In this document: positions 1 to 15,000 of the stretch, in pieces | Layout: every line of letters begins with the position of its first letter | How positions within the stretch are numbered: the stretch's first letter is position 1 | Origin: Campylobacterota bacterium | GTDB lineage: Bacteria > Campylobacterota > Campylobacteria > Campylobacterales > Sulfurimonadaceae | Length of the DNA: 52,069 nucleotides | Assembly (NCBI GenBank): GCA_034717975.1 | Contig: JAYEMF010000033.1 | Location: 1-52,069 of the forward strand | Direction: 5' to 3' | Made by a program: the position numbers

Positions 1-3000
1 GCGAGGTATCATCTCCGCCTGAACATAAAATTGCAATATTATTCATTCTTAACTGTTTCCTTCTTTAGTTTTTAAGATTATATTATGACTTTGTGTACAA
101 ATGATAACGTAATTGATTGATTTGTAAGTAATATGTAACCATACTTACATAAAATCTATTGTAAAATATTATCACAAAGGAATTCTAATGATTAAAATCA
201 AAAAAAATGGCCAAAGAGCTTGGGTGACGTTTACGTTTTTACCATCCGATACTACTGAAAGTGTTCTGATTTCAGGTGACTGGAACGAGTGGAAAGAGGA
301 GCCGATGAAGCAGAAAAAAAGCGGTGAGTTCTCCATCACTAAAATACTCAAAGTCGGAAACACGTTTCAGTTTGGTTATAAAGTAAATGGTCAGGAGTGG
401 ACATTCGATAGTGATTGCCCTGTCGTGGCATCTCCATTCCATACCCAAAACTCGTTGATTGAACTTTAATCGGACCATTTTAGATTCTTACCTTAATGGC
501 CGAAGCGCCTTTTGGAGTGAAAGATAAACTGTAGAATTAAAATCAAATAATCGTTTAAGCAGGCAGAGAACTGCTTGACATTACACCCACATATTACCGC
601 AAGGAGCACGAATGAAAGCTGTTGTTATGGCAGGTGGATTTGGAACAAGAATTCAGCCACTTACTAACTCCCGTCCTAAGCCAATGTTACCGATTGTCAA
701 CAAACCGATGATGGAACACACGATGATGACTCTTAAAGATTTAGGAATTACCGAGTTTATTATTCTGCTCTATTTCAAGCCTGAAATCATCAAAGATCAT
801 TTCAGAGACGGCAGTGATTTTGGTATCAAAATCACCTATGTCGTACCCGATGATGATTATGGTACGGCAGGTGCGGTAAAACTGGCACAGGAGCATATCG
901 GCGATGAGAACTTTATCATCATCAGCGGTGACCTTGTAACCGATTTTGATTTCCAGCAGATATTTGATTACCATCAACAAAAAGAGTCCAAGCTGACGAT
1001 CACTTTGACATCGGTAGACAATCCGCTCCAATTCGGTGTTGTCATTGCCAATGAAGAGGGAAAGATAGAGAAGTTTCTGGAAAAACCAAGCTGGGGTGAA
1101 GTCTTCAGTGATACGATCAATACCGGTATCTACATCATAGAGCCGGAGATCCTGGACTATATCCCGCAAGGCAGCAATTTTGATTTTGCCAAAGATCTCT
1201 TTCCTCTTCTTATGAAAGAGGATATTGACCTGATGGCCGGATATGCCCAGGGGTACTGGCGTGATGTCGGAAATCCGGAGAGTTACAGAGAAGTCTATGA
1301 TGATATTTTGACCAGTAAAGTAAAATTCACTTATGACGGAATAAAAACTGAATTCCCCGATGGTCTGCTCTACAGTGCCGAACCGGTTGAACTTGACAGC
1401 AGCATAGAGATTATCGGGACAGTGGTACTGGGCAAAAATGTCACACTGGGTAAACGTGCCAAGCTGAACAATGTAGTTATCGGTGACAATGTTGCCATCG
1501 GTGCATCCTGTAAGATCAGAAACACGGTATTCTGGAATGATGTAGAAGTAGGCAAAAGCGTCACGCTTGATGGCTGTGTAATCTGTAACAACAATGTTTT
1601 CGGAAAGAATTCACAGGCCAAAGCGGGCATGATCCTTGCCGAGGGATGTGAGATTGGACAACTGGTCTCTATCGAACAGGATATCACGATATGGCCGGAT
1701 AAAAAAATCGATGATGCAGCGATCGTCAGCAACAATGTGGTCTGGGGAAGCAAATACAAAAATTCAATCTTTGAAAACGGCAGTGTCATCGGAAAATCGA
1801 ATGTCGAACTCTCCTGTGAAATGTCAACAAAACTGGCAGAAGCATTTGGTGCACAGCTGCCTGTTGGCAGCACTGTCTATGTCTCCAGAGATGCCCATAA
1901 AAGCTCCAGAATGCTCAAGCGTGCCTTCCTTGGAGGATTGCTCGCTTCGGGTATCCATGTGATGGACCTGAAAAGTATGCCCTCGGCCGTTCTGCGCTAC
2001 AACCTCTCCAAGAATCCCGACATCATAGCCGGTATCCATTTCCGTGAAAATGTCATTGACCCGACCAGTACCGAGTTGACTTTCTTCAATGAAGAGGGAC
2101 TGCGTATCGATACCGGTACGGCACAGAGTGTTGAAAAAGCTTTCTTCAAAGAGACGTTCAGACGGGTTGATTACAAACAGATAGGTGTTATCCATGAAAC
2201 AGAACACCACAACCTTCATGAGTGTTTGACGTACAAAAATGCGCTTGAGTCGACAGTCGATCAAGCCGCCTTGAAGTGCAGCACCAGGTGCAGAGTCGCG
2301 GTTGACGTGATGCATGGCGGAACAGCAGAGATTTTCCCTGAGGTCATGCACGATCTTAATATCGACAATATTATTTTAAATGCCCACCATGGCAGTCACA
2401 GACTCTCAAATTTTCTTGCAAAAAAGAAAAAATCGGAAGAGGACCTTACCGCAATCGTCAAAAACCTGGAGATGGATATGGGATTTATGATCTACCCTAA
2501 CGGTCAGCGACTTAATGTCGTAACCGATGAAGGCGTGGTCCTTGGGCAAGAGACGGCCCTTCTGGTGATCTTGTATCTGCTCAATCTTGAAGCCGGGGAG
2601 GGTGCGATGTCGGTATTTCTTCCTTCCTGGGCTCCCGATGTCATGGATGATACTTTCGAGAATCTTACGATAGAGCGTGGAAAATATGCCAATTTCAAAG
2701 CTGCTGAATTGAAAAAGTATGATCTGATCGCCACACTCGATGGTAACTTTGCATTCACCGAATTTGCTCTCCACCGTGATTCGATGTATGCCTGTCTGAA
2801 GATGATCGCACTCACAATGAAACACAATATAAAGCTCTCAGACATTGTTCGCAAAATAAACTCCTTTCACTATAGTACCCATCAGATCCCGTGCACACAG
2901 GCGCTTAAAGGGAAGATGATGCGTAAGTTCCTGGAAGAGGCCAAAGGGAAAAGATCCTCTTCGGCCGATGGTGTCAAGATATGGGTTTATGAAAATGACT

Positions 3001-12000: not shown

Positions 12001-15000
12001 GACGTAACACGTTTTACAGAGCTCGATGTCTATCTGTTTAAACAGGGAAACCATATCAAACTATATGATAAGATGGGTTCACATCTCATGGAGCATGAGG
12101 ATAAAAAAGGGGTCTACTTCGCTGTCTGGGCACCCAATGCCGAACGTGTCAGTGTTCGCGGTGATTTTAATAATTACGATACTGAGGTGCACCCGCTTAA
12201 AATCCGTGAAGATGATTCCGGTATATGGGAAGGATTTATCGAAGGGGTTGAACAGGGCCCTACCTATAAGTATCACATCGTTTCAAAATTTCATAACATC
12301 ATCCATGATAAGAGTGATCCCTTTGCTTTTTACAGTGAAAAACCCTCAAATTCAGCTTCTCGTGTCTGGAGTCTTGAAGGGTACGACTGGAAGGACAAGG
12401 AGTGGATGAACGAGCGTCATAAGCATAACAATCATGAAGTAGCGGTCAGTGTTTATGAAGTGCACCTCGGTTCATGGCGGCGAAAAGTTGAAGAGGAGAA
12501 CCGTTACCTGAGCTACCGTGAATTGGCTGATGAGCTGGTTGAGTATGTCAAAATGATGAACTATACCCATGTCGAATTTATGCCGCTGACCGAGTATCCT
12601 TTCTTTGGATCATGGGGATATCAGGTGGTCGGCTACTTCGCTGCAACAGCACGTTTTGGCGAACCGGCAGACCTGATGTACCTGATCGATAAAATGCATG
12701 AAAACGGTATCGGTGTTATCATGGACTGGGTACCGTCTCACTTTGCTGTAGATATGCACGGATTGATCAATTTTGACGGAACGGCGTTATATGAGCATGA
12801 AGATCCAAGACAGGGATTCCATCCGGAGTGGGGGAGCATTATCTTCAACTATGGGCGTAATGAGGTGCAGTCGTTTCTGATCAGTTCGGCAATGTTCTGG
12901 CTTGAGAAGTACCATATTGACGGTATCCGCGTTGATGCTGTCGCTTCCATGCTTTATCTGAACTATGCCAGAGAAGAGGGGGAGTGGATCCCCAATGTGC
13001 ATGGCGGTGATGAAAATCTTGAAGCCGTTGCCTTTTTACGTAAGCTCAACGAAAGTGTCTATCGCGAGTTTACTGATATTATGATGATCGCCGAGGAGTC
13101 AACGGCCTGGCCGATGGTGACACGGCCGACAAGCATCGGCGGTCTTGGGTTTGGTTTTAAATGGAACATGGGATGGATGCATGACTCGCTTAAATATATG
13201 AGTTATGATCCCATCTACCGTCAGCATCATCACCATCAGCTCACATTCAGTATGTGGTACGCCTTTGATGAACACTTTATGCTGCCGCTGAGTCATGATG
13301 AAGTGGTCCATATGAAGGGCTCGCTTATCAATAAAATGCCGGGTGACAATAACCAGAAATTTGCCCATCTTCGTGCCCTCTACGCCCATATGATGGCGCA
13401 TCCGGGTAAAAAACTGCTCTTTATGGGGGGTGAGATAGCCCAGTTTGCAGAGTGGAATTTTGAACAGAGCCTTGACTGGCATCTGCTTGATTACCCGCTG
13501 CATAGTAAGCTGCAGAAGATGCTGAGTGATCTTAACCGCATCTACCGTGATGAGCGTGCCCTGCATCTGTATGATGAGCAGAAGTGCGGCTTTGAGTGGA
13601 TAGATGACGGCGATTATCAGCATAACTGTATCAGTTTTATGCGAAAAAGCGATGATCCGGATGAGACGGTTTTGGTGTTATGTAACTTTTCAGACGAAAC
13701 GCGTAAGTTTTACCGTGTCGGTGTACCGTATGAAGGCGAATATGAAGAGATCTTTAATTCGCAATCCTCTTATTATGAAGGATGGAACATAGGTAACAGC
13801 GGACCGATCACAGCGGTCAAAGAGACAATGCACGGACGTGACTACTCGATCAGTCTGACCCTTCCTCCTCTTGGTGTACTTTATTTGAAACGGATTATTA
13901 AATGAAAAAACGAACCAAAATATTAGCCACGATCGGGCCGGCATCTGATTCACTTGAACAGCTCGAAGCACTTATCCGTGCAGGCGTCAATGTTTTCCGC
14001 CTGAACTTCAGCCATGGGAGCCATGAATATCATTCAGAAGTTCTTGAGCGTATTCGAACAGCAATTGAAAATACCGGACTCATTACCGGAGTACTACAAG
14101 ATATCAGCGGCCCGAAGATCCGAATCGGGATGCTCGAAGAGGACTTTACACTCCGGGCAGGCGATACGATCGAGTTCGTGAAAGATGATATTGTCGGTAG
14201 TAAAGTTGCAGAGGGGTACTACCGTCTGACGATCAACCAGAAATCGATTCTTGATCGACTTCATGTTGGTGAGTTGATCTATCTGTATGACGGGATTATC
14301 CGTTCAAGAGTCATTGAAGTGACACCCGAATGTGTGAAGGTTCTTATAGAAAATGATGGGATTCTGAGTTCAAGAAAAGGGGTCAATTTTCCAAACACCA
14401 GACTCGGTATTGATGTTCTGACACCAAAAGATAAAGATGACATGCGCTGGGGAGTTGAAAACGGTGTAGACTTTATGGCGATCTCCTTTGTTCAGAATGC
14501 AAAAGATATGCGTGCCGCGCGATCTGTTGTTGAAGGTCATGGCGGAACTACCCAGCTTTTTGCGAAGATCGAAAAGTTTGATGCGGTAGAAAATATTGAT
14601 GAGATACTAGAAGCGAGTGACGGGCTGATGGTCGCACGGGGTGACCTGGGGATAGAGATTCCCTATTTTAACGTCCCGTCTGTCCAGAAGATGATTATCA
14701 AAAAAGCAAACGATGCCAGTAAACCGGTCATCACAGCGACGCAGATGCTGCTCTCCATGACCAAAAACGATACCGCTACCCGCGCCGAGATCAGTGATGT
14801 AGCCAACGCTGTTTTAGACGGTACCGATGCGGTGATGCTCTCCGAAGAGAGTGCGATGGGACATAACCCTGTTCTGGCAGTTGAGACAATGACCAATACG
14901 ATCCGGGCGACGGAAGATAACTATCCGTATGATCATCTGACAGGTTATACGATGCATGACAGAAGCGATAAGATCAATGAGTCGGCGGTCCGTCTCTGTC

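Follow-up and report, generated by a model that had tools for sequence, protein, structure and literature searches.

Bacteria commit glucose to glycogen, and regulate the pathway, at the textbook step catalyzed by GlgC, the ADP-glucose pyrophosphorylase; organisms lacking the enzyme are classed as incapable of glycogen storage by the GlgC route. Glycogen without this canonical enzyme has precedent in the Bacteroidota, in the UDP-glucose GlgC/GlgA of Aeromonas, in the GDP-glucose pyrophosphorylase of Haloarcula and in the GlgE pathway (PMC10395257, PMC11046441). Synthases of family GT5 are described as ADP-, UDP- or dual-specific, with the GlgA proteins of Aeromonas and Chlamydia using UDP-glucose (PMC11046441). 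Three further proteins serve for comparison here. CugP (Tlr0611, PDB entry 8x7s) is described as a cyanobacterial UDP-glucose pyrophosphorylase of non-GalU type (PMC7133116). SCO1388 of Streptomyces, compared by description, represents fusions labelled 'mannose-1-phosphate guanylyltransferase/phosphomannomutase', and a Streptomyces protein of this architecture is described as adding little GMP activity (PMC5982138). The product of At5g18200 (1z84, 2h39) is described as handling ADP-glucose as an ADP-glucose phosphorylase (PMC6329318, bioRxiv preprint).

The window analyzed here comprises 52,069 nucleotides from a member of the Campylobacterota (Sulfurimonadaceae), whose genome is 99.91% complete. 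A genome-wide survey's note had claimed a glycogen operon with two glycogen synthases, GlgB and GH57 genes, and all of these are present at the locus. The operon consists of ten genes on the plus strand (188..15356), with gaps of -14 to +11 bp from the fusion gene onward, and probably ends with the pyruvate kinase gene. These genes, in order, and two further ones of interest are:

188..469, plus strand: stand-alone glycogen-binding module, AMPK1_CBM/CBM48-like, 93 aa (PF16561, E 2e-8)
612..3128, plus strand: 838-aa fusion protein, proposed GlgC substitute (Pfam, Foldseek and profile matches, motifs, glgA co-occurrence)
3131..5161, plus strand: GH57 glycoside hydrolase (PF03065), putatively amylopullulanase-like
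5173..7212, plus strand: GH57 alpha-amylase/4-alpha-glucanotransferase (PF03065, PF09094, PF09095)
7205..8236, plus strand: GalT-fold histidine nucleotidyltransferase, HxHxQ at 163-167 (closest solved relative At5g18200)
8223..9653, plus strand: GlgA1 glycogen synthase, GT5 (TIGR02095, 485 bits, cut-off 328)
9650..10501, plus strand: ROK-family sugar kinase, putative glucokinase (PF00480; under every NCBIfam cut-off)
10494..11969, plus strand: GlgA2 glycogen synthase, GT5 (TIGR02095, 550 bits, cut-off 328)
11980..13905, plus strand: GlgB branching enzyme, GH13 (TIGR01515, 856 bits, cut-off 464)
13902..15356, plus strand: pyruvate kinase (TIGR01064, over cut-off), overlapping the glgB stop (gap of -4 bp)
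15705..17339, minus strand: separate phosphoglucomutase (TIGR01132, 869 bits, cut-off 778), likely the supplier of glucose-1-phosphate
19770..21488, plus strand: alpha-glucan phosphorylase (TIGR02094, over cut-off), in a gap-pgi-glgP-pgk block

The gene for the CBM48-like module lies directly 5' of the fusion gene in many relatives. Promoter and terminator scans remained at chance level. GlgA1 and GlgA2 both match E. coli GlgA at the positions that we take to be catalytic. With the E. coli glgBXCAP cluster, the locus has in common GT5 synthases, a GH13 branching enzyme and a phosphorylase, as well as a protein combining a nucleotidyltransferase with a left-handed beta-helix, including shared sugar-site residues. 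In contrast to that cluster, it encodes no GlgC orthologue (about 124 against 425 bits) but a fusion of other ancestry that also contains a 450-aa mutase-fold domain, together with GH57 enzymes in place of GlgX/MalQ and the GalT-fold gene. Neither the fusion nor the GalT-fold gene belongs to the Bacteroidota, Aeromonas, Haloarcula or GlgE routes, as far as the accounts at hand describe these.

The absence of GlgC, as claimed before, was borne out. No glgC (TIGR02091) over cut-off was found in 201 genomes of the phylum or 151 of the family, two samples that overlap, while 8 of 14 control genomes were positive. At least one glgA over cut-off is present in 93 of the 151 family genomes, none of which has glgC. 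The four PF00483 matches in the source genome are the fusion, GalU, MurU and GlmU; none is GlgC, and the fusion scores 124.5 bits against the TIGR02091 cut-off of 424.9. Loss to an assembly gap was ruled out by the completeness of the genome and by single-contig relatives that equally lack glgC. The GlgC gap is real. As the survey's note had also stated, neither GlgE nor galactokinase (galK) was found in the source genome, and the GlgE route was set aside on this ground.

The fusion comprises a sugar-1-phosphate nucleotidyltransferase domain (aa 1-235), a left-handed beta-helix (~250-375) and a phosphomutase fold (~385-838). Pfam, the structure model (pLDDT 88.9, compared by Foldseek) and its Foldseek matches place the first two in the GlgC-type pairing of catalytic domain and beta-helix. 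In profile searches, the closest solved relative of the nucleotidyltransferase was the CugP-type 8x7s (E 1.3e-88), followed by GDP-mannose pyrophosphorylases (GMPPs; 1e-79 to 1e-71) and GlgC (1e-32). CugP shows the same two-domain layout as the catalytic half and, like the fusion, a small residue at the position of GMPP Glu195, but its base-binding loop is longer, with a Glu following the strand, and it lacks the mutase domain.

Of ten E. coli GlgC residues which we take to serve catalysis or glucose-1-phosphate binding, nine are kept in the fusion (K42, D142, E194, K195, Y216, D239, F240, W274 and D276), S212 being replaced by Asn170; several of the ten are common to the whole fold. The Glu195-Lys196 pair of GMPPs corresponds to Ala193-Lys194 (Ala, Gly or Ser in relatives), and both GlgC and CugP carry Gly at the Glu195 position. 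The acidic residue 80 of GMPPs, the guanine N1 reader in the plant enzyme, is replaced by Pro79, which is invariant in 24 relatives and aligns with Gln83 of RmlA. Judged by its residues, the fusion keeps the catalytic set and a predicted glucose-type sugar site, without the guanine and mannose readers of GMPPs. Proline in place of the base-reading Glu hints at ADP-glucose as the product; the alignment with GlgC is unreliable near position 79, and the argument for adenine is solely the loss of Glu/Gln. The mannose-labelled fusions share the domain layout and form the broad annotated family to which the 838-aa fusion itself belongs. The base-reading Glu is present in 108 of the 141 sequences sampled, whereas the 838-aa fusion sits among those without it, which form a single clade (31 of 140 representatives, SH-aLRT 98). 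The idea that this non-Glu clade stands nearer to GlgC was unsupported (119 bits, against 123 for the Glu group profile).

The phosphomutase half adopts the four-domain fold (Foldseek TM 0.85 to 9du5, by target length). With 9du5 as the comparison structure, the phosphoserine motif and the aspartate metal loop are missing in every aligned Campylobacterota copy, and among the 141 sequences the serine motif occurs in one and the metal-loop pattern in three. An active mutase was ruled out since these catalytic motifs are missing.

At one and the same threshold, the fusion was found in 24 of 24 phylum genomes with glgA and in none of the remaining 177. In the family, all 76 glgA genomes of at least 90% completeness contain it (73 at the first search, three more on follow-up); both counts concern genes of one operon among kin and are not independent evidence. 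The fusion also stays when the cluster splits, e.g., in G319, where it lies alone beside glgB. No part of the cluster is better conserved than the nucleotidyltransferase domain of the fusion, whose mean identity is 73% against 43% for the GalT-like protein, 61% for GlgA2 and 64% for GlgB; 24 sequences agree at 103 of its 235 positions. Five family genomes contain a second fusion match; the four copies examined and a named plasmid showed no glycogen neighbours. Outside the phylum, alpha-glucan genes lie near 8 of 35 non-Glu metagenome loci (one Campylobacterota-like; many contigs short) and near 5 of 45 Glu-type loci, so that a link exclusive to the non-Glu clade was unsupported.

The GalT-like protein has the GalT fold and the HxHxQ nucleophile motif, its type being assigned by matches to solved structures. 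As noted in the survey, it matches 1z84 (full-length, E 1.3e-43) better than E. coli GalT (1.9e-14; 24% identity), with HxH kept. A Leloir GalT was ruled out, as both curated cut-offs were missed (TIGR00209, 98.5 against 102.1; NF008724, 122 against 448) and galactokinase was not found. Unlike At5g18200, the gene is bacterial, lies in glycogen or glucosylglycerate clusters and is sometimes fused to GH57; the activity of its product is predicted. A genome-collection scan with a single GalT-like protein as query returned one locus.

The claim that this gene is fixed before glgA mostly holds within the family (11 of the 12 additional loci that carry it) but fails across the phylum. In 23 phylum glgA genomes, its 3' neighbour is glgA in 11, the ROK kinase in six and a GH57 branching enzyme in four; in the other two, it precedes none of these or lies at a contig end. 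In all 23, a GH57 gene precedes it or forms a fusion with it, the fused frames measuring 872-876 aa in one lineage (G177, G297, G301, G324 and G328). Nor does the operon always carry it: the gene was not found in the glgA genomes G256, G319 and G163, each 99-100% complete (2 of 76 good-quality family and 1 of 24 phylum glgA genomes), and G256 shows a clean glycogen cluster without it. In a fourth, G008, Asn replaces the nucleophilic His while glgA and the fusion are kept. The GalT-like protein is therefore probably accessory, and plausibly an ADP-glucose phosphorylase.

Several other explanations were weighed. Read as labelled, the fusion would be a GDP-mannose pyrophosphorylase/phosphomannomutase and a mere passenger in the cluster. 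The source database names and the single-sequence PDB matches to GMPPs speak for this, but the guanine reader and the Glu195 equivalent are missing, the mutase motifs are nearly absent from the 141 sampled sequences, the Streptomyces protein of this architecture adds little GMP activity, and the mannose-1-phosphate guanylyltransferase model is scored at 268 against a cut-off of 440. Moreover, all gmd-bearing genomes (19 of 36) have their own ManC, and the source genome has neither gmd nor ManC. Residues and the ManC/gmd pattern together ruled out a GDP-mannose supplier, and we regard the labelled function as highly improbable. It is also very unlikely that the nucleotide-sugar route is idle and that phosphorylases, the GH57 transferase and GlgB build or recycle glucan beside vestigial synthases. 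Three alpha-glucan phosphorylase genes and the two GH57 genes and sugar kinase of the operon would fit such a scheme, yet both GlgA proteins pass TIGR02095 with E. coli-like catalytic positions, and the family widely retains glgA. Housekeeping GalU, over cut-off in the source genome, might instead give UDP-glucose to a UDP-tolerant GlgA, as the Aeromonas and Chlamydia enzymes illustrate, with the fusion as a regulator or a maker of another nucleotide sugar. GalU was matched in 35 of 36 tested genomes, 19 of 20 glgA-positive and 16 of 16 glgA-negative, and therefore does not track glycogen. This quite unlikely reading leaves unexplained why all good-quality glgA genomes retain the fusion and why its active site is invariant, and G213, a 60-contig draft, has two glgA and the fusion without a GalU match.

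A GalT-like enzyme that forms ADP-glucose in a ping-pong reaction, passing an adenylyl group to glucose-1-phosphate from ADP, ATP or some other AMP source, alone or with the fusion, is unlikely as well, albeit with more in its favour: the closest solved relative handles ADP-glucose, galactokinase was not found, all 90 family matches fall inside the 93 glgA genomes, and HxHxQ is intact in 43 of 44 loci (pattern search; two misses resolved separately). The option is kept alive by two complete genomes, G071 and G478, in which the gene is flanked by gpgS and a Ggs-like or GT20 synthase, among NDP-glucose-using osmolyte glucosyltransferases, and in which neither the fusion nor glgA occurs. GgS is described as an ADP-glucose user, and GpgS enzymes as accepting several NDP-glucoses (PMC3736172), so that GalU can feed these two genomes. 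Losses of the gene or its nucleophile from genomes that keep glgA argue against a donor-maker. For ADP + glucose-1-phosphate -> ADP-glucose + Pi, Keq is about 0.006-0.01. The survey's proposal of a donor supplied or controlled by either gene or by both is thus supported, but its emphasis on the GalT-like gene is weaker than the case for the fusion, because the constant neighbour is a GH57 gene and not glgA and because the phosphorylase reaction runs uphill toward synthesis. Since the fusion is never missing from good-quality glgA genomes and the GalT-like gene sometimes is, the fusion appears the best candidate donor-maker.

We therefore favour, with reasonable though restrained confidence, the fusion as the dedicated donor-maker of a GlgC-less glycogen operon, an offshoot of the CugP/GMPP branch and not of GlgC, with an accessory GalT-like protein; the fusion is probably a non-orthologous replacement of GlgC. 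From gene content, co-occurrence, residues and fold, we infer the activities, the nucleotide, the regulatory role and the glycogen itself as follows. The operon would make and turn over glycogen without GlgC. The separate pgm product would provide glucose-1-phosphate, and the fusion would act as a glucose-1-phosphate nucleotidyltransferase (NTP + glucose-1-phosphate -> NDP-glucose + PPi) feeding GlgA1 and GlgA2, with chains branched by GlgB. As donor, ADP-glucose is the most likely, by a little better than an even chance; UDP-glucose is a lesser possibility and GDP-glucose a slightly lesser one still. The solved enzyme nearest to the nucleotidyltransferase is a UDP-glucose pyrophosphorylase, and some bacterial GT5 synthases accept UDP-glucose, both of which weigh against this explanation. 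The phosphomutase-like half, presumably catalytically dead, is probably a sugar-phosphate sensor or assembly domain. The GalT-like protein may play an accessory part as an ADP-glucose phosphorylase/adenylyltransferase, converting donor back into glucose-1-phosphate, and would belong to turnover along with the GH57 and ROK genes.

As previously claimed, our literature search found no description of this fusion/GalT-like glycogen system; no link of the mannose-labelled family to glycogen was found either, and in the Geobacter genome literature nothing beyond a mention of 'a different putative' GalT came up. Should the fusion take the place of GlgC, bacterial glycogen would have a second pathway to its building block, and a widespread mannose-1-phosphate guanylyltransferase/phosphomannomutase family would be misannotated. 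More tentatively, and on balance doubtfully, the non-Glu clade might constitute a second, independently derived ADP-glucose pyrophosphorylase, arisen within the CugP/GMPP branch by loss of the base-reading Glu and controlled by a fused dead phosphomutase sensing hexose phosphates. Together with the GalT-fold phosphorylase, it would form a make-and-release cycle running glycogen storage in chemolithoautotrophic Campylobacterota and in several other phyla, where its present annotation is that of a mannose enzyme. With the gap filled by the fusion, enzymologists would gain an AGPase-like scaffold of a new kind that includes a pseudo-enzyme domain, and the plant ADP-glucose phosphorylase its first bacterial context, as far as our literature search found. 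For the primary producers of vents, seeps and aquifers (environmental Campylobacterota, sulfur bacteria), the system would provide a mechanism of carbon storage.

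Ten co-oriented genes open the window:

188-469, forward strand: glycogen-binding module (93 aa), first gene of the run
612-3128, forward strand: nucleotidyltransferase-phosphomutase fusion (838 aa), second gene
between the fusion and the GalT-like gene, forward strand: two GH57 genes
7205-8236, forward strand: GalT-like gene, 3' of the GH57 pair
3' of the GalT-like gene, forward strand: glgA1, ROK kinase, glgA2, glgB and pyruvate kinase, in this order

From the fusion on, intergenic gaps range from -14 to +11 bp. A separate pgm follows 3' of the operon, and then a gap-pgi-glgP-pgk block. 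The window genome is 99.91% complete and holds four PF00483 matches, i.e., the fusion, GalU, MurU and GlmU. Its best match to the glgC model (124.5 bits, cut-off 424.9) is the fusion itself, and neither galactokinase nor GlgE was found. Close homologues with a named source belong to Campylobacterota.

The same genome encodes a near-duplicate pair of short alpha-glucan phosphorylases of about 570 aa (window 19770-21488 and contig C3:851-2596). A third, longer one lies on contig C135 beside a fragmented Ggs-like gene (C135:24518-24947, locus L005:6405-6951). A second NDP-glucose consumer, gpgS, lies with gpgP and glycerate kinase on another contig (C87:52-3325). In the window, a histidine kinase and receiver-GAF-GGDEF-EAL pair is located 3' of pgk (22857-27075), and a biotin carboxyltransferase lies with a Na+-translocating decarboxylase beta subunit at 30706-33862.

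The genome-wide survey's note had reported glgC missing from the family, and this was confirmed: no match exceeded the cut-off in 201 phylum or 151 family genomes, two overlapping samples, versus 8 of 14 controls. The glgC gap is general across the group. glgA is present in 24 of the phylum and 93 of the family genomes. The phylum sample yielded 24 sub-threshold glgC matches (E < 1e-25), every one in a frame of 834-874 aa and, where checked in fetched regions, identical with the fusion; counted over kin that are not independent and operon genes that travel together, the genomes concerned are exactly the 24 with glgA. With the same dependence among genomes, 73 of 76 family glgA genomes at least 90% complete showed such a match, and the other three were found by querying with the fusion protein. 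Two incomplete glgA genomes (72% and 74% complete) are without the fusion, and two others (56% and 80%) carry it without glgA. The fusion is also kept where the cluster is split, e.g., in genome G319, where it stands alone beside glgB.

Individual operons vary. One of the 24 phylum-sample fusion genes, in the single-contig genome G040 (L040:14797-17379), is interrupted at about codon 277 by a single TAA, reflecting a sequencing error or a real split. The operon of genome G166 has two genes inserted between those for GH57 (L033:5854-9529), one of the MmeI restriction-modification type and one with an ORF6N domain. Two loci with the fusion-GalT cassette encode glycogen synthases behind a large N-terminal region, in frames of more than 1500 aa (L075:15669-20297 and L077:5826-10844); in L075 this region includes an alpha-amylase domain.

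In the predicted model (pLDDT 88.9, pTM 0.63), the fusion consists of a nucleotidyltransferase domain, a left-handed beta-helix and the entire phosphohexomutase fold. The phosphoserine motif and aspartate loop of the mutase half are absent from every Campylobacterota copy aligned. Across 141 full-length sequences (the window protein plus 140 of 150 representatives), the former occurs in one and the aspartate-loop pattern in three. Conservation in the cluster is highest in the catalytic half, where mean identity is 73% and 103 of 235 positions are invariant among 24 sequences; mean identity is lower in GlgB (64%), GlgA2 (61%), the mutase half (50%) and the GalT-like protein (43%). By profile, the catalytic half comes nearest among solved structures to 8x7s, a UDP-glucose pyrophosphorylase of the CugP type (E 1.3e-88), followed by GDP-mannose pyrophosphorylases (GMPPs, 1e-79 to 1e-71) and, far behind, GlgC (1e-32); this ranking rules out the fusion as a GlgC orthologue.

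In the part of PMC9168903 covered, guanine N1 is bound by an acidic residue 80 of plant GMPP (Asp80 there, Glu in the aligned chain), and the pair Glu195-Lys196 is critical. At the equivalent positions, the fusion carries Pro79 and Ala193-Lys194. Its residues 191-194 and 215-220 match D239-F240 and W274-D276 of E. coli GlgC. Pro79 also aligns with Gln83 of RmlA, the pyrimidine reader of that enzyme. These residues hint at a glucose-type site with neither a uracil nor a guanine reader, which might fit adenine. However, the GlgC alignment around the loop of position 79 is unreliable, and sequences with and without Glu at this position score GlgC alike, which makes the step to adenine a weak one. 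Glu occupies position 79 in 108 of the 141 sequences, and 31 bearing Pro, Ala or Ser group into a single clade (SH-aLRT 98) in a quick, midpoint-rooted tree of 140 rows. Among 20 representatives looked up, named members of this non-Glu clade include Desulfurella, Dadabacteria, Ignavibacteriota, Caldisericota, Calditrichota and Omnitrophota. That the clade is a second, independently derived ADP-glucose pyrophosphorylase is possible, though we regard it as doubtful.

Among the best 80 of 579 metagenome loci, 35 are non-Glu, and eight of these lie near GH57, GalT-like or glgA genes; for seven of the eight, identity to the window protein is only 35-41%. Alpha-glucan-related or GalT-like neighbours occur at five of 45 Glu-type loci, and none of the 80 showed a GlgC motif. 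Many of the contigs are short; in a scan covering 26 non-Glu and 20 Glu loci, several long ones carry unrelated neighbours. The cassette is thus not confined to Campylobacterota, and members of the family are not all glycogen genes. Extra copies amid unrelated genes, one of them on a plasmid, count against a GlgC substitute. These stand-alone copies have intact motifs (L145:12035-14572 on plasmid NC_014754.1, L156, L157, L158 and L159); the plasmid copy is flanked by phospholipase A and patatin-like genes, with no glycogen genes nearby. At L131:8356-9984, a NUDIX-GT4 glycosyltransferase fusion lies directly 5' of a Glu-type fusion gene.

Other enzymes could supply a donor. GalU was matched in 19 of 20 glgA-positive and 16 of 16 glgA-negative genomes among 36 chosen from the family; the draft genome G213 has two glgA genes and the fusion with no GalU match. 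The covered text of PMC11046441 documents GT5 synthases that take UDP- or GDP-glucose, and also a GDP-glucose pyrophosphorylase from haloarchaea; these count against our reading of the fusion. ManC is present in all 19 genomes with gmd, and neither was found in the window genome, so GDP-mannose supply does not require the fusion. According to the section of PMC5982138 covered, Streptomyces SCO1388, whose description gives it the same two parts, adds little GMP activity.

The GalT-like gene tracks glgA nearly as well as the fusion does (23 of 24 phylum and 90 of 93 family glgA genomes). No copy was found in three glgA genomes that are 99-100% complete (G256, G319 and G163); in G256 it is cleanly lost, one contig reading fusion, GH57, GH57, ROK, glgA2, glgB. 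HxHxQ is kept at 43 of 44 loci, and the G008 protein has Asn at the nucleophilic His position. The latter (L053:3005-4057) is also without the first Zn-site cysteine pair of the window protein and is otherwise full length. The position described as fixed before glgA did not hold phylum-wide (11 of 23), whereas the gene is 3' of, or fused to, a GH57 gene in 23 of 23. Five genomes have fused frames of 872-876 aa (L045:6950-9568, L154:10438-13053, L155:10085-12712, and G297 and G301); at the three L loci, the fused gene lies directly 3' of the nucleotidyltransferase fusion and 5' of glgA.

For ADP + Glc-1-P -> ADP-glucose + Pi, Keq is estimated at about 0.006-0.01, and phosphorylase chemistry therefore favours ADP-glucose release. 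The best structural relative, At5g18200, is described as an ADP-glucose phosphorylase (PMC6329318 and bioRxiv 10.64898/2026.09.13.751320, each in the part covered). Production of the donor by the GalT-like enzyme seems improbable to us. Against our reading stand the complete genomes G071 and G478, which have no glgA and no fusion and keep the GalT-like gene, motif intact, with gpgS on one side and a gene for a Ggs-like or GT20 glucosyltransferase on the other. An enzyme serving purely as a release valve would be hard to explain there, unless its substrate is another NDP-glucose; as far as PMC3736172 was covered, GgS is described as an ADP-glucose user, but GpgS enzymes take several donors. These glucosylglycerate-type clusters (L047:8544-14331 and L176:7331-14360) comprise a phosphatase, glycerate kinase, GpgS and a Ggs-like GT2, and G478 has a GT20 synthase as well. 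The G071 protein counts Aquificota proteins among its nearest named homologues, so the cassette may have been transferred as a unit. Most Geobacteraceae carry "a different putative" GalT and do not use galactose, according to the part of PMC2996986 covered.

The literature searched, with subscription journals that print much glycogen enzymology mostly outside its scope, contained no account of this operon or of a glycogen-synthesis role for the fusion, and the covered text of a 2024 review (PMC11046441) does not mention GalT, phosphomannomutase or Geobacter.

From the gene content and residues observed, we infer the activities of the pathway as follows. Pgm would supply Glc-1-P, which the fusion would activate to NDP-glucose, with pyrophosphate hydrolysis pulling the reaction. 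GlgA1 and GlgA2 would elongate the chain and GlgB would branch it; GH57 enzymes, phosphorylases and the ROK kinase would return polymer to glycolysis, whose genes adjoin. The GalT-like enzyme would convert excess ADP-glucose back to Glc-1-P, and the dead mutase domain may stand in for the allosteric clefts of GlgC. The survey's observation is in part upheld, but the lead candidate is now the fusion instead of the GalT-like gene; the fusion would work like GlgC yet is no GlgC.
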